Positions 26,899 to 46,400 of a stretch of DNA of 64,000 nucleotides are shown here, in pieces; positions within the stretch are counted from its first letter, which is position 1; each line of letters opens with the position of its first letter. Location of the stretch: the IMG/VR virus record IMGVR_UViG_3300037804_000367, positions 1 to 64,000 of that record; one strand, given 5' to 3'. The notes under the pieces are model-generated. The model had not been told where the DNA came from. It saw only the letters and a program-made list of their open reading frames with translations, and did not search any database. This DNA is from a virus. A program made the translations under genes and the position numbers.

Positions 26899-26961
26899 AA
26901 TAATATCCTTTAGTTGTTTTAGTTATTTATATTTTAAATGATATGCAAACATATTCAATAT

Positions 26962-26993
26962 AAAAAAAAATCCCAACCGGCTAAGGTTAGGAT
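26962..26993 (-). terminator. Intrinsic terminator downstream of the large ncRNA
   Basis: ATCCTAACC-loop-GGTTGGGAT followed by T9 on the minus strand. Confidence 0.85.
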
Positions 26994-27004
26994 AAGAAAA
27001 AAAA

Positions 27005-27616
27005 GCAAAGTTTTAGGACAAACTCTATCCTCTGCTGATGGTGATTACTAACTGTCCACGCCGCTGTAAACGACTTCACCATCTTCGACCCAGTTGTTAC
27101 CTGTTAGGGCATGCAACTGTACACTACGTAAACTGTTGACTTCTAGTGTCAAATATATCCTCAGAGCTACCAAGTCATATAATTCACTGATCTCTTTCTC
27201 ATGCTAGGTACATGGTCCATCAATCCCCTTTCGGGACATCTAAGCTATTGCTAACTCAAACATTAGTCGCTTCGTCAATTCAGTCTGATACGTTTAAGAC
27301 TTTCGTCTCTTACCTAGACATTTATCATTAGATAGCATGTCTTTGGTGTCGTTCTTTCGATAACGTAACCAATCCGTTAGTAACAATATCAGCGTTCCTA
27401 CTTTGGCGAGTAGTCTCATAATATTGTCTTACTAATAGGTTTCGAGAACCGCCAAGCTCATCTATCCTATCCACCGTCTAAAAGGAAGCATGTACTCTAG
27501 GAGAAGACGATCTCCATATCCTTTCTTGGTCCTGACTATTCCCGAAGGTCAACCGCCCGACATTGCAAGTTGATTTATTCTCCCGTCAACAAAGGGAGAT
27601 GGACAACTAGTGTCCG
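27005..27616 (-). ncRNA. Large ornate non-coding RNA (~610 nt), ROOL/GOLLD-like
   Basis: No ORF, raised GC, many GAAA/UUCG-capped hairpins, long-range helices, terminator downstream, next to the tRNA array. Family assignment tentative. Confidence 0.7.
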
Positions 27617-27657
27617 TTACTTTTTACTTATTATATATTCCTACTAATGTAAGCACT

Positions 27658-28734: not shown

Positions 28735-28785
28735 ATTTAATTTTCCATTTGTTTTATTATCCAGCTATTAGATGAAAATTTAAAG

Positions 28786-28871
28786 CGGAAAGCATAGGGA
28801 TCGAACCTAATACCACAAGTGTACCAACCGTTTAGCAAACGGTGACCAGCGCCAAGCCAGTATTACTTTCC
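28786..28871 (-). tRNA. tRNA-Ser(GCT)
   Basis: GGAAAGT/GCTTTCC stem, ACCGT-TTGCTAA-ACGGT, long variable arm, G73. Confidence 0.85.
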
Positions 28872-28884
28872 AAAAAAGAATATA

Positions 28885-28954
28885 GTGATTGAGCAGGATT
28901 CGAACCTACATCTCGGCGCCCAAAAGGTGCGACTTCCCATTAGTCCATCAATCA
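28885..28954 (-). pseudogene. Atypical tRNA with poorly paired anticodon arm (Gln/Lys-like)
   Basis: TGATTGA/TCAATCA acceptor, good D and T arms. GCAC-CTTTTGG-GCGC anticodon arm is imperfect. Confidence 0.5.
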
Positions 28955-29051
28955 GTCCCTTACACTTTTACATACACAACTTTCAATCGTACTCTAGATT
29001 ACAAAAGCGTACGCGTATATTACTAATGTTAGTTTCTTTTACTATAAAATG

Positions 29052-29139
29052 TGGAGACTAGTGTCAGATTCGAACTGACGAGAGGATTTCTCCTAGCGGA
29101 TTTGCAATCCGCCGCCTTCAACCACTCAGCCAACTAGTC
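29052..29139 (-). tRNA. tRNA-Cys(GCA) with a long variable arm, CCA encoded
   Basis: GACTAGT/ACTAGTC, U73, GCGGA-TTGCAAA-TCCGC, extra AGGA-GAAA-TCCT hairpin. Confidence 0.85.
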
Positions 29140-29699
29140 AAAAAATTATTTCTATATTCTATTACTTCTTGCTCTACTAAATGTTTTAAATTATTGTTGT
29201 GCCAATACAAATGATGATTAGGACACATTGGTATTAAATTTTCAACTGAATTGTCATTGTGATCTTCATTAAAATGATGAACCGAAACTGCATTCTCTTC
29301 GTCACACACTACACATTTTCGTTCATGATGTTCAAAACAAATTCTCACATACGCTTGTTTTGAATCAATTTTAAAATTAGGATGATTCTTTCCACTTCTA
29401 AAGTGTTTATTTCTACAAGCTAATGAACATGTTGTTCGGTTTCTTCTATCAGTTCCTTTAATAATACGAACTTCAGTTTCAAACTCAGTATCACAAACTG
29501 GACAATTCTTTTTTACTTTCTGGTACACGCCTCTATTATTATGATTTGAATCAAAATGTTCAATTGATATATTATTATCTTTGATGATAGCTTTAATTTT
29601 AGATCTAGCATACGATCTATCATTTCCTATCAGTGAGTTACAAACATCCTTGTATGTGAATGATTCTTTTATTATTTTTTTTACTTTTTCGATGTCCAT
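29118..29699 (-). mobile_element. HNH homing endonuclease
   Basis: CPVC, C...C, CVVC...VHH..EDH.DN...NLIPMCPNHH. Own TATAAATA. Stop codon lies inside tRNA-Cys. Confidence 0.85.
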
Positions 29700-29807
29700 T
29701 ATATATTCCTTTATGATTTATAAAGGTATTTATAATATAATGGGTAATAACATAGACGGTGAACTTATTTATTCACTATCTTGTTGGTCCCCTGACAAAA
29801 AGATAAA

Positions 29808-29882
29808 GGGTGATGGACGAGAGTCGAACTCGCATATAACTCGATTCACAGTCGAGCGCTTTACCATTAAGCTACCAAAACC
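29808..29882 (-). tRNA. tRNA-His(GTG) with two acceptor-stem mismatches
   Basis: CTCGA-CTGTGAA-TCGAG. GGTTTTGG pairs with CCATCACC imperfectly. Confidence 0.7.
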
Positions 29883-29890
29883 ATATTAAG

Positions 29891-29962
29891 TACACCGTTC
29901 AGGACTCGAACCTGAAACTTTCCTTTCGTAGAGGAAAATGATATCCATTTCACTAACGGCGC
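29891..29962 (-). tRNA. tRNA-Arg(ACG)
   Basis: GCGCCGT/ACGGTGT, TTCCT-CTACGAA-AGGAA. Confidence 0.88.
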
Positions 29963-29972
29963 AGATTTAAAT

Positions 29973-30051
29973 TGGCGTAGAAGAAGGATTCACACCTTCG
30001 TGTTGAAAGAGACAGGTTTACTACTCTGCTGTATCGTCAGTCCGAACTACC
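29973..30051 (-). pseudogene. Degenerate tRNA-like element ending CCA (Tyr GTA-like loop)
   Basis: T-arm GAAGG-TGTGAAT-CCTTC, 3' TTCTACGCCA, weak 5' half. Confidence 0.45.
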
Positions 30052-30201
30052 AGTCCTATTGTCCAACCTTTAAGTTTGATCCTATCCTGACATGATTAGT
30101 AGTTTAGTCTAACCTGTTTCAATCAACTTTCAAACACATAGCATTTACCAGAGAGATCTCTTATCTCACTAACTTAACTTAGTACTACATAAAAATTTTA
30201 A

Positions 30202-30351
30202 TTACTTGTCACTTTCAATGTTTACAGGAATAGTTACATCATGAATACTATCTGAAAACCTAGACAACTTTCCAAAACTAACTAACATGACTAATTGCAT
30301 CAATGGATGTGCTATCATATTATGCACTATCCAATTTTTATATAACCATTT
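30202..30351 (-). CDS. Small hypothetical protein (likely start MKWLYK)
   Basis: W.VHNMIAHPLMQ....SD.IHD.T motif typical of small phage proteins. Start estimated. Confidence 0.5.
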   Translation of the reverse strand, partial: KWLYKNWIVHNMIAHPLMQLVMLVSFGKLSRFSDSIHDVTIPVNIESDK

Positions 30352-30421
30352 CATGATTGTTCCTTGAACTATTATTAAATTTAATTGCTCTTTATTATCC
30401 TTTAGTATTATAATAAAGTTA

Positions 30422-30492
30422 CAGGTCATCAAGGATTTGAACCTTGATCAACGGTTTTGGAGACCGTCATGTTACCATTACACTAATGACCT
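30422..30492 (-). tRNA. tRNA-Trp(CCA)
   Basis: AGGTCAT/ATGACCT, ACGGT-CTCCAAA-ACCGT, G73. Confidence 0.92.
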
Positions 30493-30596
30493 AACTGGTA
30501 TGAAGAAGTTCTCGTGTACATCGATACTATTCTTTTTCACTGCATACCTCAGTTAGAATATCATGGCTTAAAGGCTCTAGTAATACTCTGGTAGAA

Positions 30597-30686
30597 TGGC
30601 GGAGAGTAGAGGGATCGAACCCCTAGCCTTTTGAGTTGCCACCACCGGGTTCAAACCGGTTTGCAGACCATTCCGCGGTACTCTCC
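30597..30686 (-). tRNA. tRNA-Ser(TGA), CCA encoded
   Basis: GGAGAGT/ACTCTCC, ACCGG-TTTGAAC-CCGGT, long variable arm. Confidence 0.85.
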
Positions 30687-30692
30687 GTTTTA

Positions 30693-31127
30693 TTATTGAA
30701 CTTGATGATCAGCGACAGAACTTGCACACCAGCTATCAGGTTTTAATTTATAATCATAACCGAATCCTTTTACGAATCCACAAATTTCATTCTTGTACAA
30801 CCCACTTTTGAATTTAGGATTTTGATTTACGTCCAAGTGAATTGTAATGTTTTGGGATATCATTTTAGATATCTTCTGTGCTACTTCTAGTGACATCCAT
30901 GCTTCGTGAATCAAACGATCTCGTAATGACGGGAACAACTCTGTATAGTGCATTCTTTTTATTACATGGTTATCGTTTTTCTTTACTAGTGCGATGACTG
31001 TACTAAAAAGAACTTGTTTATTCTTTCTTTGAGAATCTGTTCCGATGAATACTTCTCTGCCATCACATGCATGTTGTTTTAAGAACTCGTCAATGTCGAG
31101 CTCTGTTCCTGATAGTGTAGTCCACAT
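30693..31127 (-). CDS. RNase H-like YkuK family protein
   Basis: VFIGTDSQ, RL..EAWMS, IHLDVN, IKPDSW.ASSVAD pattern. Confidence 0.85.
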   Translation of the reverse strand: MWTTLSGTELDIDEFLKQHACDGREVFIGTDSQRKNKQVLFSTVIALVKKNDNHVIKRMHYTELFPSLRDRLIHEAWMSLEVAQKISKMISQNITIHLDVNQNPKFKSGLYKNEICGFVKGFGYDYKLKPDSWCASSVADHQVQ

Positions 31128-31171
31128 TTTCCTATTCCTTGTTTGTTTCTCCTTTGAGAATGTTATGTTAG

Positions 31172-31245
31172 TATCACTGCTAGGACTCGAACCTAGAACC
31201 TATGGTTTAGAAAACCACTACTCTATCCAATTGAGCTACAGCGAC
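31172..31245 (-). tRNA. tRNA-Arg(TCT)
   Basis: GTCGCTG/CAGTGAT, GTGGT-TTTCTAA-ACCAT. Confidence 0.9.
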
Positions 31246-31259
31246 ATGTTGTAAAAAAG

Positions 31260-31331
31260 TCCACCTGGTTGGTTTCGATCCAACTTCCCCGATTTAAAAG
31301 ACCGGTGCTATCCCAATTCAGCTACAGGTGG
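31260..31331 (-). tRNA. tRNA-Lys(TTT)
   Basis: CCACCTG/CAGGTGG, CCGGT-CTTTTAA-ATCGG, T-loop ATCGAAA. Confidence 0.82.
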
Positions 31332-31346
31332 GTGTTTGTAAAAAAG

Positions 31347-31418
31347 CCTCGTAGGTAGGTAACGATCCTACATCTCCGGTTCTTCAAACCAGCGCTAATC
31401 CATTTCAGCTACTACGAG
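31347..31418 (-). tRNA. tRNA-Phe(GAA)
   Basis: CTCGTAG/CTACGAG, CTGGT-TTGAAGA-ACCGG, T-loop ATCGTTA, G73. Confidence 0.8.
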
Positions 31419-31426
31419 AGTTGTTT

Positions 31427-31515
31427 AATCACAAGTCGCATGGTAGGCAGCTGTGCTTGCGCAGTGAACTGTTCATTGCATTAGACCTCTCTCGAAAGAG
31501 TTACGTCTTGTGATT
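31427..31515 (-). ncRNA. Unknown ~90-nt structured RNA inside the tRNA operon
   Basis: Closing stem AATCACAAG/CTTGTGATT, CTCT-TTCG-AGAG hairpin, further internal stems. Confidence 0.5.
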
Positions 31516-31531
31516 AAAGTTGTAAAAATTA

Positions 31532-31605
31532 TACCGCAGGAGAGACTCGAACTCTCAAACTCTGGTTTCTAAAACCAGTCCATATGCCAATTCTGGTACT
31601 GCGGC
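31532..31605 (-). tRNA. tRNA-Leu(TAG) with a short variable loop
   Basis: GCCGCAG/CTGCGGT, CTGGT-TTTAGAA-ACCAG, 5-nt variable region, A73. Confidence 0.85.
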
Positions 31606-31611
31606 TTAAAG

Positions 31612-31685
31612 TACACGGAGAGGGACTCGAACCCACAATCTTCTGTATGTAAAACAGATGCCTTAGCCAATTTGGCTATCCGTGC
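31612..31685 (-). tRNA. tRNA-Val(TAC)
   Basis: GCACGGA/TCCGTGT, TCTGT-TTTACAT-ACAGA. Confidence 0.9.
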
Positions 31686-31698
31686 TTATTGTAAAATA

Positions 31699-31772
31699 TC
31701 TGTGAGGTAGGATTTGAACCTACAGCCTCCGACGTCCAAGGTCGGCCATCAACCAGATCGATATCCACACAG
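31699..31772 (-). tRNA. tRNA-Pro(TGG) copy 1
   Basis: CTGTGTG/CTCACAG, CCGAC-CTTGGAC-GTCGG. Confidence 0.8.
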
Positions 31773-31786
31773 TTCTGAATTGTAAA

Positions 31787-31856
31787 CTGATGCGATAGGA
31801 TTTGAACCTATACCCTCCTTGCGCTAGGAGTGCTCTTCCCAATAAACTACACATCA
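31787..31856 (-). pseudogene. Atypical tRNA with a 6-nt anticodon loop (AGCGCA)
   Basis: TGATGTG/CGCATCA acceptor, canonical T-arm, CTCCT/AGGAG stem. Confidence 0.55.
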
Positions 31857-31869
31857 TTAGTAAAATGTA

Positions 31870-31943
31870 TCGGTGTGAGAGGATTTGAACCTCCAGTCTT
31901 TTCGCCCCAAACGAAACGCCTTACCAGATTAGGCTACACACCG
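31870..31943 (-). tRNA. tRNA-Pro(TGG) copy 2
   Basis: CGGTGTG/CACACCG, TTTCG-TTTGGGG-CGAAA. Confidence 0.9.
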
Positions 31944-31953
31944 TTATAAAAAT

Positions 31954-32028
31954 TGGAGCCTATGGGGAGTACCGAGATCCCGACCTGCTGGTTACAAATC
32001 AGCTGCTCTGCCACTGAGCTACATAGGC
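31954..32028 (-). tRNA. tRNA-Thr(TGT) copy 1, CCA encoded, unusual T-loop
   Basis: GCCTATG/CATAGGC, GCTGA-TTTGTAA-CCAGC. Confidence 0.8.
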
Positions 32029-32037
32029 ATTGTAAAG

Positions 32038-32113
32038 TGGAGCCGCCTGACAGAATCGAACTGACATTCCTGCATTACAAAAGCAGTTTCTTAAGCCATT
32101 AGAAGAAGGCGGC
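32038..32113 (-). tRNA. tRNA-Thr(TGT) copy 2, CCA encoded
   Basis: GCCGCCT/AGGCGGC, loop TTTGTAA. Confidence 0.8.
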
Positions 32114-32123
32114 ATTTAAAACT

Positions 32124-32199
32124 TGGTGGAGAATACCGGCCTCGAACCGGTGTCGGGTGGGTGCAAGCCACCTGTTTTATCCATCTAAACTAATTCCCC
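32124..32199 (-). tRNA. tRNA-Ala(TGC), CCA encoded
   Basis: G3:U70, GGTGG-CTTGCAC-CCACC. Confidence 0.92.
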
Positions 32200-32219
32200 A
32201 AAAATCTTTACTATAGTGA

Positions 32220-32738
32220 CTACCCTAACGACAGCCCTCTTGCACTTCTACCATTACCTTTATTTCGTCCGCCAAATGTTTCAGTCTGACTATGACAATT
32301 AGGACAAATTAATCTCAAGTTAGTTGGAAAGTTATTTCCTGCGTTCCCGTCGATGTGGTCTACTTGTAGTGTTAAAGGCTTGTTATTATATTCACTTATA
32401 TTACATAGTGCACATTTATATCCTTGATCATGAGTTAAGCAACGTCTCAGGGTATTTCTAGTTTCTATCAATCCGTCTCTAAATCTACAAAGGGTAGTGT
32501 TCTCAAATTTATAGTTTGCTTGGCAAATATTATTACAGTATATTTTTTTACTATGTTTTATATCTGCTTTACAATACTTACAATTTGATAATCTACCTTT
32601 ATATGATCGTAATGTATTTGTAACCGTTGCTCTACATGATTTACTACAGAACTTGTTTGTTCTTTGTTTAAATGTTAACATGCTGTTACAGCACTGACAA
32701 TATTTTGGATGTTCACTATATATTTGTTTTGTTATCAT
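32220..32738 (-). mobile_element. HNH homing endonuclease
   Basis: FCSKSC, CALC, LQVDHIDGN..NN...NLRLICPNCH.QT.TF. TATAAATA at 32757. Confidence 0.9.
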
Positions 32739-32803
32739 TTCACATCTCCTTTCTATTATTTATAATATACAGGAGTCGAACTCACTAGCACAAGTTAAAA
32801 AAG

Positions 32804-32877
32804 TGCAACGTACCGGTCTCGAACCGATCTTATTTCTCGTTGGCAACGAGATGCCATACCAACTAGGCGAACGATGC
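32804..32877 (-). tRNA. tRNA-Gly(GCC)
   Basis: TCTCG-TTGCCAA-CGAGA, canonical T-arm. Confidence 0.85.
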
Positions 32878-32935
32878 ATGTAAAATTTACTTCTATCTTC
32901 TATCACATGTTATAAAACAGATCAATGTTAAAATA

Positions 32936-33009
32936 TGGCTACCCCGACTGGTTACGATCCAATCCTAACTCTTTCAAAGAGAGCTGTGCTACCAATACAC
33001 TACAGGGCA
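32936..33009 (-). tRNA. tRNA-Gln(TTG), CCA encoded
   Basis: U1:A72, GCTCT-CTTTGAA-AGAGT, T-loop ATCGTAA. Confidence 0.82.
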
Positions 33010-33020
33010 GTCTAAAAAGT

Positions 33021-33096
33021 TGGCGGTATAGACGAGAGACGATCTCGCAACCTTCCGATAGACAATCGGATGCTCTGCCAATTGAGCTACTATACC
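33021..33096 (-). tRNA. tRNA-Asp(GTC) copy 1, CCA encoded
   Basis: GGTATAG/CTATACC, TCCGA-TTGTCTA-TCGGA, T-loop ATCGTCT. Confidence 0.85.
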
Positions 33097-33103
33097 AATT
33101 AAG

Positions 33104-33185
33104 TGCCGCCTCTGGGTAACGATCCCAGCGAGCATAATGCGCAGGTTTTACAGACCTGATCCCCTCCTTAGAGATATACAACGGC
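33104..33185 (-). tRNA. tRNA-Tyr(GTA)
   Basis: CAGGT-CTGTAAA-ACCTG, long variable arm, T-loop ATCGTTA. Confidence 0.8.
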
Positions 33186-33194
33186 TTAAAATAA

Positions 33195-33267
33195 CGGTTC
33201 ATACGAGATTTGAACTCGTGTTCCGCCCGTGACAGGGGCGTGTCCTAACCAACTAGACGAATGAACC
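33195..33267 (-). tRNA. tRNA-Asp(GTC) copy 2
   Basis: GGTTCAT/ATGAACC, CGCCC-CTGTCAC-GGGCG, G73. Confidence 0.9.
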
Positions 33268-33276
33268 TTAAAAGTT

Positions 33277-33897
33277 TTATTTTTTTCTTGTTTTATAAGT
33301 GCTGGTTTGAGAATGACAATTAGGACATAACATTCTCAAATTAGAAATTTCATTATTCCTATGATCACCGTTAATATGATCAACATCCAAAGTAATATCA
33401 TTTCCTAACCAGTTTGTCAAATGACAGCTAGAGCAAATATTCATATCTAATATTTTGAATTTCTTTACTGCTCTGCTAATACTACTCCTATCATACTCAC
33501 TATTTTTACAAAAAATCAATTCTCTTGTCCATTCCTTTTTCCCTCTCCTATATGATTTTTTTAAATCAAAATGTTCTAAACTTAGATTATGTTCTTTGAT
33601 CTTCAATTTCACATTTTTTATATTATTATTATGATAAGTTAAATTTAATTGTTTTAATACATCAGCCATACAAATTGAATTAGCAATAGCTGATTTTAAG
33701 TCATTAATGCTATATCTCATACTTCTACGACAAAGCAAAATTCCATTTTGCGTTAGCCTTTCTGAAAGGATTTCTCGCACTCCAGTGTCTTGACTTTCTA
33801 TAACCTTTAAAATATTTGAGATTGATTTGTGTTTATAATACAAATCACAAAGTTCAACATCTGTCATTTTTCGTACAATTTCTCTTTTCGTCATAAT
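33277..33897 (-). mobile_element. HNH homing endonuclease (likely start MTKREI)
   Basis: CSSC..W....LDVDHINGDH.NN.ISNLRMLCPNCHSQT.TY. Confidence 0.9.
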
Positions 33898-34010
33898 GGC
33901 ACCTCTTATTGTTACACCTGTCATTATTTATAACAACTATAGCACTAACTGTGCCCTAACAACTACATAAAATAAAGAGGAAATCAACAGACTTTCTTAC
34001 TGAATTTTAA

Positions 34011-34176
34011 TGGGAAGTGTAGGAATCGAACCTACGAATGTTTACAAAAGCTCATCAGCCTCATTCAACTTGATCGGCGCTAACCCTAATCAAGCGGTAA
34101 ACTCTAAGTCACTTAGCCTCCATGACCTATTTGTGTGCCCGATGACGCTAATCATCATCATCTCATCTACTTCCCA
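34011..34176 (-). ncRNA. tRNA-like RNA (~166 nt) with an expanded core
   Basis: TGGGAAGT/ACTTCCCA acceptor and GTAGG-TTCGATT-CCTAC T-arm enclosing ~130 nt of branched stems. Confidence 0.7.
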
Positions 34177-34193
34177 GTAAATTGTTTGTAAAG

Positions 34194-34267
34194 TACTACA
34201 GGAGAGATTTGAACTCTCAGTCACCTGTTTATCAGACAGGCGGCTTAACCAATTTGCCTACCGTAGT
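34194..34267 (-). tRNA. tRNA-Ile(GAT)
   Basis: ACTACGG/CTGTAGT, CCTGT-CTGATAA-ACAGG. Confidence 0.88.
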
Positions 34268-34276
34268 AAAAGTGAG

Positions 34277-34409
34277 TGGGGTCGGTAGGAATCGAACCTA
34301 CTTACAACTTTATCCAAGCATTAAGTAATAGCTTATTACTTTCACTATTTAGCCTAGTGATTAATTTTAAGGATATCTAAACAAGTTGCTCTTCCACTAA
34401 GCAACCCCA
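34277..34409 (-). ncRNA. tRNA-like RNA (~133 nt) whose anticodon loop is replaced by a branched insert
   Basis: TGGGGTTG/CGACCCCA, T-arm, CAACTT/AAGTTG, ATCC/GGAT, TCACTA/TAGTGA and AAGTAATA/TATTACTT stems. Confidence 0.72.
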
Positions 34410-34427
34410 TGTAAATTTTTAATAAAT

Positions 34428-34504
34428 TGGTGCGACATGAGAGACTCGAACTCTCAACATCCACATTGGAAGTGTGGCACTCTAGCCAATTGAGTTAATG
34501 TCGC
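34428..34504 (-). tRNA. tRNA-Gly(TCC), CCA encoded
   Basis: GCGACAT/ATGTCGC, CCACA-CTTCCAA-TGTGG. Confidence 0.92.
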
Positions 34505-34588
34505 ATTTAAAAGTACCGCCGTGATATTGATCTATGGTGTCGACCCCTTCGATCTTCAAACCCTTAGAGTGAGCTTATATTACTCAAG

Positions 34589-34661
34589 TGGAGGACACGG
34601 GACTCGAACCCACAATGCCGGCAGTTTGCCGGTGAAGTTAACCAATTACTTCCAATCCCCC
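34589..34661 (-). tRNA. Ala-identity tRNA-like RNA with a non-canonical 5-nt anticodon loop
   Basis: GGGGGAT/GTCCTCC with G3:U70 and A73, CCGGC-AAACT-GCCGG. Confidence 0.6.
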
Positions 34662-34749
34662 GAGCAACATTATTCACACCGTTCGGGTTTGTTTTTATAT
34701 CACGACTTGGCATCCCCATCCTCCCTTTCGGGACTCCGCTTCTGCCTGA

Positions 34750-34821
34750 CTGATCTAGCTGGACTCGAACCAACATTTTACAAATTAACAGTTTGCTGCA
34801 TTACCATTATGCTATAGACCA
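34750..34821 (-). tRNA. tRNA-Asn(GTT)
   Basis: TGGTCTA/TAGATCA, GCAAA-CTGTTAA-TTTGT, G73. Confidence 0.9.
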
Positions 34822-35041
34822 AGGTAAAAAACATTTACTTAACATTTAAATCTTTATCATTCGGCGTAGTTAGTTTAAAAACTACCTTTAGGATGTTCCC
34901 CGTCTGAAAATGTTTGGTGGATTCGCAGAGTTGATGATAAATATCCTTGTCGGTTCCGTTGTTAAGTAAATGTAAAGATGTATTTAATTTAGGGTACTGC
35001 TGTAACCATTACGCTACATTACGGTTCTAACTTAGATACAA

Positions 35042-35112
35042 TGGCGGGTGCCGGACTCGAACCGACGTGCGAGGCTTATGAGACCCCTGAGTGACCACTA
35101 CTCTAACCCGCT
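35042..35112 (-). tRNA. tRNA-Met(CAT), initiator-like
   Basis: A1xC72 mismatch, G-rich anticodon stem, loop CTCATAA. Confidence 0.8.
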
Positions 35113-35335
35113 ACAAAAAGTAAGCCTCTATATTTTTGTTATCTCGGAGGTTGACACTTACCCGTCCTCCGACTACTCATAATTTTTAAAATGGTGGATC
35201 GCTTATTTTTCATGATCGTCCACACCGTAACACTTTATAAACAAACTAGTATTTATTATAAAGCTTATACCTGCTTCACGAACCGCCTGACCATTATCCG
35301 AATTGTTTTAGTTTCGGCAACTACAGTTGTTAAAA

Positions 35336-35459
35336 AGCCCACCACTGGAATCGAACCAGTTCCTAGAGTCGGGTTTGTTCCTTTGCGAAGCGCTTCACTC
35401 GGGACCTCCATCTAATATAACCTCAGCAAGTGAGTGCTCTACCAATGAGCTAAATGAGC
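35336..35459 (-). ncRNA. tRNA-like RNA (~124 nt, Thr-like body) with a ~55-nt insert
   Basis: GCTCATT/GGTGGGC, D-arm GCTC-ATTGGTA-GAGC, T-arm ACTGG-TTCGATT-CCAGT. Confidence 0.65.
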
Positions 35460-35474
35460 ATGTTGTTTGTAAAA

Positions 35475-35535
35475 TGGCGCTGGAACTAGGAGTGCATGCC
35501 TAGATTTACCATCCCTATCCTAAGGGACGTCCAAC
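35475..35535 (-). ncRNA. Minimal ~61-nt tRNA-like RNA ending CCA
   Basis: GTTGGA/TCCAGC acceptor-like stem, TCCC/GGGA hairpin, CTAGG/CCTAG T-like arm. Confidence 0.4.
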
Positions 35536-35541
35536 ATTTAG

Positions 35542-35615
35542 TATTCCAGACGGGGCTCGAACCCGCAATCTTCTGCGTGAAAGGCAGACGAGATGACCAA
35601 TTACTCCACTGGAAC
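35542..35615 (-). tRNA. tRNA-Glu(TTC)
   Basis: GTTCCAG/CTGGAAT, TCTGC-CTTTCAC-GCAGA. Confidence 0.9.
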
Positions 35616-35731
35616 AAATATTAAGATCAACAAAGTTTACCAAGCTTATACTACGCCAAGTCTTTAATCGATCTTAAAGATTTGCTTTAAGGACTGGTTA
35701 TCCTTAAAGACTTTTATCTTTACATTTTTTA

Positions 35732-35750
35732 ATTCAATTTTCAAAGATCT
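35732..35750 (-). promoter_or_regulatory. rrn-type boxA-like antitermination element in the tRNA operon leader
   Basis: AGATCTTTGAAAATTGAAT, between tandem promoters (35815, 35934) and the first tRNA. Confidence 0.6.
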
Positions 35751-36237
35751 TTCGGATTGGGCCCTAACGCCTGATCCTTTCTTACCTACTTTACTATACT
35801 CTCTATTGTGAGATAGTCAAGCTGTTTTTAAAACTTTCTTAGAGTTTTTTTAGAACTCTCTGACTTTCATTTGATGTTCCTCAGTTAGTATTATTTGTTT
35901 CTTACTTCTTTACTATACTCCGGAACAAAAAAAAGTCAAGCTCTCTTTGAAGAAAACTTGACTTTAAAATTTGATTTTGGATTTTGGATTTAATCTACAA
36001 TTTTATATCAAGTCTCCTAGAGGTTTTTGCACGGGTTCATTAAAACTCGCATTCATGCCTCGATCAATCGTGCACACAGGTGCTGCAATTGTCCCCTGAA
36101 GGGCAATCGATCTATAGCTTGTATGTAGATTAGTAAACATGTGAAATTGTAAATCCTTTTAAATTGTTTGTGTCTTTCTTTTATTTATGTTATATACTCT
36201 GATAACTTAAAGCACTTTATACTAACTTTCTTATTTA

Positions 36238-44385: not shown

Positions 44386-44419
44386 TACGTTTAATCTTAA
44401 AAAAATTTTACACACTGTT

Positions 44420-46400
44420 GTTGTTTAACCGTTATACAATGCACTATTGTCCTTGGGGAGATAGCATGGGTTATAGTGACTTGAATTTTAACCATTATTG
44501 ATTTGTTGGTTATTTTAGTAGACTAGTCTTTGGTATAACCTTTATGTGTTGTTTGTTGTGTAATGCATGTATTATATTATCTTAGCAAGTTGCGTTATAG
44601 TTACATCATATCCACGAATTAGTACAGTTATTATACGATCGTTGTATACAACTATGTACATGGGTGTATTGATTTACCCTATCGTTGATCGAGAAGTTAT
44701 TAGACCGTAGGACAAAAGCTGCTTAGCACATTGCCGTTGAATGAGCCGTTTTACGCAAAAATCGTAAAAACGCTATATACACGTATTTTAGCTATTGAGA
44801 TAACGTCTCACGCAGATTGCGGTATACTAGCCGTTAGTACACGATTTAAGTAATCATAGATACAACAACTCGTTATACGTAGGAATGCGTAAGATATAGT
44901 TTTTGGTATAAACGTCGTTATGAATAGTTGTATTATTCAATAATAGCATTTGACCATATACTAATACAATTGGTAATACATTCTACTACGAATAAAGGTA
45001 TCATAACGTATTCCATGCATTCATAAGTGATCATAACGTGTTATATCAATTACTAAGTGATCATATCGTGTTATATAAGGTAAACCGTCCCTTTACCTAG
45101 GGAAAAAAGTGTTATTTAGAAATTCATAGCGGTTTCTACGCGTTTCTAAGCGATCCTATCAGTTTCTATACCGGATATTGGGGTAAATTGCGTATATTAT
45201 CAGTAAAACCATTGCTCTTCCCGGGGAATACTCCACCTGACACGTGTTTATTCGGTGATTAGGGTAATAAACTAGTTGATATTAGTCAATACTGGGTTAA
45301 ATATTGCAAAATAGTCTGGATAATAGTATGTTAAGCGGGAATATTAGTAAAAACCGTCTCTCTTCCTGCAGAGACCTCGAACATACGCGTGTTTATTCGG
45401 CGATTGGGTCAATAAACGACATATAAATCAAGGAACATTGTATGATAGCTCTTATAACTGCTGCTTGGGACAAGATTTCGAGCGTAGTTGGTGATGAAAC
45501 CACTATTACTCCGGATACTTACGAGTATCTTGGGGTAAAATTCACTAATGGAGAGACAAAACTGTTAGATATCGGTGATGACTTCGAGAAAAGGCACTTA
45601 GAAAGTATATTTCCCATCATTTCCGAGTATGGATACAGTTCTTTAACTGCAATTGGCCCTAATAATGGATTTTATATCATTCCAAAGGATAGTTCTTACA
45701 ATTTAACCATTGCTTGGCGCTATGAAGGCACTACTTTGGGTCAAATAGGTTCATTTAATGAGCAAAGTGAAGTAATTGAGCGCAAGCACCCGATGTTTTT
45801 TGCTGATCACATCTGTAATAGTTGTTTGAAGCCTATTACTATATGTAAATGTGAACAATTAAGTCATCCGATCGATCATTTTGGTGGTCCAGGTACTGCT
45901 TGGGGTGGTCCAGGACCAATTGAAGTAATGAAAGGGTAAACTTTTATCAAAAACTGACTAAAAACAGTCAACTTTTGTGGTAGGGCACCCACCTCCCTTG
46001 GTATAACAATATCAGCTAGACCTTTTTCGATCGTTTTATGTCTCAACGCGCGACCAAAAAAAATAAATATTGTATATCGCGTAGTGCACAAGTGTAGTAC
46101 ACAATAATTTGGCAGTATTTTATAAGTGACCTTTGTAATACATCTTTAAAAGTATAACGAAATCGTTTTTGCTTAATAATTGGCAAACATTTAAAAGTAT
46201 AACAAAATCGGCAAGACCTTTTTCGATCGATTTAGGTCTAACACGTGACCAAAAAAAATAAATATTGTATATCGTGGACTAGTATAGCGTAGTGCACAAT
46301 ATTTTGGCAGTATTTTCCGTAGACCTTTTTCGATCGATTTAGGTCTGTAGCATTATTTCAGCATTTTACCTAATAGTCGATTTCGTTAACGAGTTTTTTT
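44420..46400. repeat. Largely non-coding region with several families of direct repeats (candidate origin)
   Basis: AGACCTTTTTCGATCG at 46018, 46214 and 46321, two ~147-nt imperfect tandem blocks (45193, 45340), GATCATA.CGTGTTATAT x2. Confidence 0.65.
45442..45939 (+). CDS. Hypothetical protein with a C-terminal Cys knuckle
   Basis: AAGGA RBS, C..C..PIT.CKC. One of the few plus-strand genes. Confidence 0.6.
   Translation: MIALITAAWDKISSVVGDETTITPDTYEYLGVKFTNGETKLLDIGDDFEKRHLESIFPIISEYGYSSLTAIGPNNGFYIIPKDSSYNLTIAWRYEGTTLGQIGSFNEQSEVIERKHPMFFADHICNSCLKPITICKCEQLSHPIDHFGGPGTAWGGPGPIEVMKG

Follow-up and report, generated by a model that had tools for sequence, protein, structure and literature searches.

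The window analyzed here is the first 64 kb of a 128.8-kb viral contig from IMG/VR (CheckV completeness 38%). The same phage is also represented by a 257-kb ENA contig and a Logan contig, which are 100% identical over 20 kb, so that these other assemblies (L086 and L087) offer no sequence variation to exploit. The source is a marine T4-like jumbo phage with a GC content of 34%, and phages found to be related through its NAD-dependent ligase have genes of the T4 type, among them gp32, gp59, and baseplate genes. Positions refer to the window unless a locus is named.

The minus strand of the window carries a tRNA island of 27 tRNA genes (28785–35615, assigned with ARAGORN), with HNH endonuclease genes and a PF04308 RNaseH-like gene scattered within it. 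The candidate RNA lies at the end of this island, ∼1.1 kb from its last gene. Read along the minus strand, the island is followed by two ORFan genes, the candidate RNA, a terminator, a set of small ORFs, and the ligase gene. The ORF directly upstream of the candidate encodes 135 amino acids and is itself an ORFan, for which the Atlas model is poor. The phage possesses its own tmRNA gene, located by a search with RF00023 at positions 103754–104117 of the record, away from the candidate.

The island shows several further features. The tRNA called by ARAGORN at 31787–31856 has a two-base “anticodon” (cg) and an undetermined identity; it scores 40 bits with the Rfam tRNA model, and its neighbors are normal. 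Inside the island, the tmRNA model weakly matches two segments (34274–34547, 19.9 bits, and 34586–34661, 8.9 bits), and a full tmRNA gene (78 bits) is present on a related T4-like phage contig (L003:7686–8041). Immediately 5′ of the island's first tRNA, an AT-rich segment (35600–36050) within an 822-nt ORF-free gap (35416–36237) has minus-strand folding z-scores of −2.6 to −4.4 in five successive 150-nt windows. The PF04308 gene (YkuK/DUF458, RNase H-like) recurs in the tRNA islands of unrelated jumbo phages (30693–31127 in the window, L203:9989–10456, and L090–L092), and a role for it in tRNA or RNA processing seems worth testing.

The body of the candidate gene spans ∼630 nt on the minus strand (26996–27626). 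It is ORF-free, GC-rich, and collinear with two homologs, and its 5′ end is approximate, being set by the start of the alignment. The earlier note, which was made from the letters of the window, had described this region as free of ORFs and richer in GC than its surroundings, and both descriptions hold. The longest ORF in 27005–27657 has at most 48 codons, and all three minus-strand frames contain many TAA, TAG, and TGA stops (20 in one frame). No gene was called here in two further assemblies of this phage, and the candidate lies within the longest part of the genome that lacks ORFs of at least 60 amino acids. Its codon periodicity falls in the bottom 5% of genome windows, and tblastx of the candidate against its own genome and ∼1.7 Mb of relatives detected no similarity. 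The GC content is 40–44%, compared with 28–34% in the flanks; the value of 42.3% places the candidate in the top 2.4% of 600-nt windows of the genome, which has 34% overall. A second ∼1-kb gap without an ORF of at least 60 amino acids, at 44416–45441, has an ordinary GC content (34.7%).

The transcription unit ends at a strong intrinsic terminator on the minus strand (26962–26993), as had been proposed, with a 9-bp stem (26993–26970), a 6-nt loop, and a T9 tail. Directly beyond it, at 26958–26931 on the same strand, lies a promoter-like site for the next genes. At the opposite end, a perfect TATAAT hexamer is found on the minus strand at 27630–27635; it has no −35 partner, and the sequence TGCTTAC stands 13 nt upstream at ∼27655–27649. 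This hexamer may possibly represent a weak or activator-dependent promoter. A sigma-70 scan found no full promoter upstream of the candidate, and a boxA-like leader was looked for upstream of it without success. The candidate RNA is therefore probably made by read-through and then trimmed.

The folding energy of the candidate is modest, with z = −2.4 for the 621 nt without the terminator (reached by 1 of 100 shuffles) and a similar value for the plus strand. Local z-scores in 150-nt windows are ordinary and contain no outliers. The strands differ in their GNRA-capped hairpins with stems of at least 4 bp: the minus strand has 3, compared with 0.72 expected (p ∼ 0.035), and the plus strand has 0. 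Neither internal repeats nor a T-arm or acceptor-like module occur in the candidate, and an array of small modules or tRNA-like pieces was rejected on these grounds.

Homologs of the candidate (n = 2) are present on two other jumbo-phage contigs, G036 (185 kb, locus L203) and G034 (223 kb, locus L208). The candidate is collinear with L203:10528–11192 and L208:1900–1262 over ∼600 columns, at 47 and 45% identity, respectively, and the G036 and G034 elements are 68% alike. With the G036 element, the collinear alignment covers the full extent of both sequences. The candidate shares no k-mers with the other members. The pattern GUCCCGAAAGGGG-NNNN-AUGGAC is common to the candidate and G036, and the motif CCCGAAAGGGGNNNNAUGGAC occurs only in these two among 205 loci (∼4 Mb).

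The L203 locus was reached by a viral scan with an alignment of the RNaseH-like tRNA-island protein. A covariance model of the central domain, built from the candidate alone, recovered the candidate itself and gave one marginal match of 14 bits, which lies in L203. The covariance models built from the candidate and G036 (n = 2) in turn matched G034 with 75.4 bits (E = 8e-15) and 48.5 bits (E = 2.6e-11), the two matches preserving order and spacing, whereas neither 36 other viral records nor another 1.29 Mb of loci contained any match. In the reverse direction, a profile made from G036 and G034 alone has a single match with E < 1 in the 128.8-kb genome, and this match is the candidate, at the collinear position (27262–27203, envelope 27440–27174). 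Its E-value of 0.045 is marginal by sequence alone, as expected at 45–47% identity.

Other routes gave no further members. BLAST of the candidate against 50,697 GenBank phages returned nothing, and the G036 element matched those phages through its terminator only. No homolog was found in the loci at 85 related ligase genes (L002–L006 and 80 IMG/VR loci), and the whole records of 24 ligase-relative loci contain chance matches of 15–25 nt only. The upstream 135-residue ORFan, used as a synteny anchor, led to no homolog, and exact as well as structure-aware motif scans of viral contigs, metagenomes, and GTDB genomes produced chance matches only.

The homolog in G036 is a free-standing RNA gene. 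It occupies an ORF-free stretch of ∼680 nt inside a tRNA island, directly behind the RNaseH-like gene, with a GC content of 46% compared with 39% for the locus. It has its own promoter (TTGAAC-17-TATAAT) and an 11-bp terminator. A 3′ intrinsic terminator is thus present in both the candidate and G036; a scan detected none for the G034 copy. A boxA-like leader is found in G036 (GATCTTTAAAAA) and in G034 (GTTCTTTGAAAA), and neither form occurs in the candidate. The candidate differs from G036 by the absence of an own promoter and from both homologs by that of the boxA-like leader, and it has an extra hairpin (27515–27500) and a phage-specific long-range helix. The G034 copy lies 7–8 kb from any tRNA, which weakens the link to tRNA genes; this link holds for two of the three members. 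Just downstream of the G034 copy is a gene for a PF17338 (GP88) protein (L208:458–1138). The genes that precede the RNA are different and unrelated across all three members.

The three elements were aligned with MAFFT, which is blind to structure, and the evidence for a common fold rests on three sequences, two of them 68% alike. When the MFE structure of the candidate alone was projected onto this alignment, 110 of its 182 pairs (60%) were kept in G036 and 107 of 169 (63%) in G034, compared with 37–46% in slid controls, in which the 3′ partners were shifted by 1–3 columns. The projected structure includes 41 and 42 double-compensated pairs in the two homologs, and the reciprocal projections, from the structures of the homologs onto the other members, agree with it. 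The earlier note had named covariation with homologs as a check on the element, and within this set of three sequences each homolog shows ∼41 double compensatory changes. An RNAalifold consensus of 154 pairs, derived from the same three sequences on which it was scored, has 88% of its cells paired, compared with 40–45% in slid controls. Of the consensus pairs, 74 are changed on both sides, compared with 9–20 in the slid controls and 31 ± 4 in shuffled alignments, none of which reached the observed number (0 of 500). Through these many compensatory changes, ∼400 nt of the 3′ part keep one secondary structure.

This conserved structured core comprises the 3′ two-thirds of the element (27037–27440, minus strand), defined by helix retention and compensatory changes and by the covariance-model blocks A and B. 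Its first feature, on the minus strand as are all those that follow, is a long hairpin (27374–27438). The apical stem CUACU/AGUAG (27413–27398) of this hairpin keeps 5 of 5 pairs in both homologs with 2–3 double changes. Its lower stem, which corresponds to the helix UAGUAA-GACAAUAU / AUAUUGU-UACUA noticed previously, keeps 12 of 19 pairs with 5 double changes. A 12-bp stem capped by a GCAA loop (27236–27263) contains five G·U pairs and can therefore form in the minus-strand RNA only; 9 and 11 of its 12 pairs are kept in the two homologs, 6 pairs are changed on both sides, and the GCAA loop is identical in all three members. Adjoining this hairpin is the GUCCCGAAAGGGG hairpin with its GAAA tetraloop (27225–27237); no other long stretch of sequence is unchanged across the three members.

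The segment after AUGGAC is enclosed by a helix GAUUU.../...AGAUC (27189–27225), all 5 pairs of which persist in G036 as well as in G034, each with 3 double changes. A long-range helix, GACUG-UUGAC / GUCAA-CAGUU (27131–27285, arms at ∼27285–27274 and 27142–27131), closes the central multi-branch region; 8 of its 10 pairs are kept in G036 and 5 of 10 in G034. Toward the 3′ end, the hairpin CAGUUG.../...CAACUG (27091–27119) keeps 8 of 10 pairs and features swaps from A-U to U-A and from G-C to C-G. The last helix of the core, GAUGGUGA/UCACCAUC (27037–27083), surrounds an inner hairpin (27074–27060) and keeps 7 of 8 pairs, one of which is GC, CG, and UA in the three members. Both of these 3′ helices had been predicted by the earlier note and are retained in the homologs.

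The remaining ∼180 nt form a variable 5′ domain (27441–27626, minus strand), whose hairpins (27615–27601, 27599–27579, 27573–27549, and 27515–27500) are mostly not kept at the aligned positions. A GGAGA/UCUCC hairpin of this domain is absent from the homologs, and the hairpin at 27515–27500 is missing from both. Of the three tetraloop hairpins proposed from the letters, GAGAC-GAAA-GUCUU and UCCC-GAAA-GGGG are real, and CC-UUCG-GG has 2–3 pairs only. UCCC-GAAA-GGGG is invariant, whereas GACGAAAGUC and CC-UUCG-GG fall in parts that the homologs do not share.

A phage-specific long-range helix (27204–27500, minus strand, arms at 27500–27489 and 27214–27204) lies outside the conserved fold. This helix is the long-range pairing CUAG-A-GUACAUG / CAUGUAC-CUAG proposed by the earlier note; it is indeed present and perfect, with a span of 286 nt, but only 5 of its 10–11 pairs are found in the homologs, which is the level of the slid controls. 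This pairing lies 3.1 kcal/mol above the MFE and has a pair probability of 0.02. Several other elements were considered and rejected. An enrichment of CUAG or palindromic kissing loops is not significant after correction for composition (16% of shuffles) and is not conserved in the homologs; the hairpin that would carry a motif resembling the 11-nt receptor (UAUGG...CCUAG) is absent from them; and a 12-bp end-to-end helix (27611–27600 with 27058–27047) is outside the consensus fold, about two such helices being expected by chance according to our estimate.

The conserved core and the setting of the homologs bear on whether the element is a gene of its own. It could instead belong to the tRNA-island operon as a 3′ untranslated or processing region that acts in cis, with hairpins that block 3′ exonucleases or guide an RNase and with no separate RNA acting in trans. 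The position of the candidate, which lacks a full promoter and lies directly between the 135-residue ORF and the terminator of the operon, would suit such a region. However, the G036 homolog stands free between its own promoter and terminator, and the three members follow unrelated genes. Moreover, a 400-nt core with many helices that carry compensatory changes, together with invariant tetraloops, goes far beyond what a stability element needs. A purely cis-acting role is therefore improbable, although it survives better than the other alternatives.

Comparison with the relative closest by ligase (L002, 64% identity) shows that the position of the candidate is variable. The two phages are syntenic as far as the small ORF immediately past the terminator. 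In L002, a 208-residue ORFan (L002:321–947; no Pfam or PHROG match) replaces the 135-residue ORFan and the RNA, which indicates that the slot is variable and that the RNA is dispensable or mobile. A variable slot, the abundance of homing endonuclease genes nearby, and the modest folding z-scores would be consistent with non-functional DNA, be it a decayed gene, what is left of a mobile element, or a GC-richer piece of foreign DNA. On the other hand, translated comparison shows no likeness between the element and the L002 ORF or any other sequence compared, which led us to reject a decayed copy of the 208-residue gene, and the element has no codon periodicity. Decaying DNA would also not keep its pairs through ∼40 double changes in each of two distant homologs, and we regard non-functional DNA as very improbable. 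The earlier note had read the region as a large structured RNA that codes for no protein and is encoded on the minus strand next to the tRNA island; a fold that is kept in two homologs and the lack of any credible ORF uphold this reading.

To our knowledge, few classes of large, elaborately folded RNAs are known from bacteria and phages. For three of them (GOLLD, ROOL, and OLE), assembly from RNA alone was recently demonstrated. The earlier note had suggested a member of the ROOL/GOLLD class or a new RNA. We searched the candidate against Rfam 15 at the gathering score and then against all families at E ≤ 10, and no family matched at either level. Because E-values in the all-family search are multiplied by 4,227 families, the main families were rerun singly on the whole 128.8-kb record at E ≤ 10. 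In these single searches, neither ROOL (RF03087; gathering score 99.1 bits) nor OLE (RF01071) gave a match, with no positive control responding for either model, and GOLLD (RF02032; gathering score 150 bits) gave none in the candidate, with no control over the cut-off. The accession of GOLLD is RF02032; RF01998 denotes group-II-D1D4-1. The ROOL and GOLLD models also do not match the elements of the homologs. The working criterion for membership in GOLLD or ROOL is a cmsearch match with E < 1e-5 (10.1101/2024.12.08.627333), and the candidate yields no such match to either family. Membership in the ROOL/GOLLD class thus finds no support at E ≤ 10, and of the two branches offered by the earlier note, the second, a new RNA, proves correct.

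The candidate resembles both families in general terms. GOLLD is likewise a large phage-borne non-coding RNA, often near tRNA genes and with marine examples. Its 5′ region is variable, its 3′ region is conserved, and it contains many GNRA-capped hairpins, to which the candidate bears a likeness of layout only. GOLLD differs in size (>800 nt, compared with ∼630 nt in the candidate) and in its covariance model, which the candidate does not match at E ≤ 10. GOLLD also assembles into a 14-mer cage with conserved A-minor loops. ROOL is closer in length (574 model positions or ∼580 nt, compared with ∼630 nt) and shares the phage origin, the tRNA-island neighborhood, and the many helices, but its covariance model is not matched by the candidate at E ≤ 10 either. 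ROOL has a conserved kissing-loop signature. Among the three members described here, inspection by eye showed no conserved self-complementary loop.

A very divergent ROOL or GOLLD member that escapes the Rfam models would account for the shared size class, for the GOLLD-like arrangement of a variable 5′ and a conserved 3′ part, and for the same niche in phages, often in tRNA islands (10.1101/2024.12.08.627333). The region, the 128.8-kb record, and the elements of the homologs are nevertheless all without a match at E ≤ 10, and this explanation appears slightly less probable still than non-functional DNA. Among shorter RNAs, the stable RNAs C and D of phage T4 (species 1 and 2) are non-tRNA molecules that are encoded, and probably co-transcribed, with tRNA genes. 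They measure ∼120–140 nt and are tRNA-like, whereas the candidate has ∼630 nt and no T-arm or acceptor-like module. In the wider literature, a 2023 survey of IMG/VR reported short motifs only, with a mean of 67 nt (PMC10690425), and we found no paper from 2025–2026 on a third class of the GOLLD/ROOL type.

Known RNA machines were searched for in the same way. At E ≤ 10, the models for RNase P type A (RF00010) and type B (RF00011) find nothing in the candidate, with controls detected in 11 of 14 genomes for each, and those for the group I (RF00028) and group II (RF00029) introns find nothing there with working controls. The tmRNA model (RF00023) likewise has no match in the candidate at E ≤ 10, in the same search that detected the tmRNA of the phage, and ARAGORN finds no tmRNA in the candidate region. 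The element is followed by a terminator and is not flanked by the halves of a split gene, and the candidate is therefore not an intron. The reclassification as a known intron or RNase P RNA that the earlier note had allowed for thus falls away, and RNase P identity was rejected on the unmatched type A and type B models. The idea that the candidate is a ribozyme or a known machine (RNase P RNA, a group I or II intron, or tmRNA) in unusual form is the least probable of all, since, even if an own RNase P RNA would fit a phage with 27 tRNAs and a tmRNA, and AGUACAUGCUUC and AGGUAAG...GAAAG are segments that we took by eye to resemble conserved regions of RNase P, these segments are not conserved in the homologs, the models remain unmatched, the real tmRNA lies elsewhere, and a terminator follows the element.

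Taken together, the candidate is very probably a non-coding RNA gene of ∼630–660 nt and a divergent representative of a large folded RNA family that uncultured jumbo phages carry and Rfam 15 lacks. That it is a structured RNA gene, whatever its family, can be stated with slightly greater confidence. Action in trans is probable, though distinctly less secure. The formation of RNA-only multimers is doubtful for this candidate.

Under the preferred reading of a large folded phage RNA, minus-strand transcription would reach the candidate by read-through from the genes before it, and perhaps also from a weak promoter of its own, making it the final product of the tRNA-island unit. The terminator and RNA processing would then release the RNA, which may fold into a compact particle organized by the conserved core. 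In such a particle, the invariant GAAA hairpin and the adjacent GCAA hairpin may provide tertiary contacts or contacts between copies. Like GOLLD and ROOL, the RNA would act in trans during infection, and its most likely target would be the translation apparatus (tRNAs or ribosomes), which this RNA-rich phage might remodel.

A more speculative and, on balance, unlikely extension of this model is that the family ranks with GOLLD and ROOL as a third class of giant RNAs in phages. Its members might then form a protein-free multimeric particle, made together with the tRNAs, that during infection keeps tRNAs or ribosomes, protects them (from host anticodon nucleases, for example), or delivers them. 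On this view, the candidate would have diverged, lost the promoter of its own, and joined the tRNA operon.

An RNA family that is unrelated to GOLLD and ROOL but of their size, and that occurs in giant marine phages in or near tRNA clusters, offers an independent handle on the purpose of such RNAs, and comparison of these families can reveal their common traits and their role in infection. Members this divergent escape detection by k-mers and BLAST, so that sequence searches probably underestimate the extent of the family. As a divergent member, the candidate delimits an essential core of ∼400 nt and indicates that such an RNA can be expressed from within a tRNA operon.
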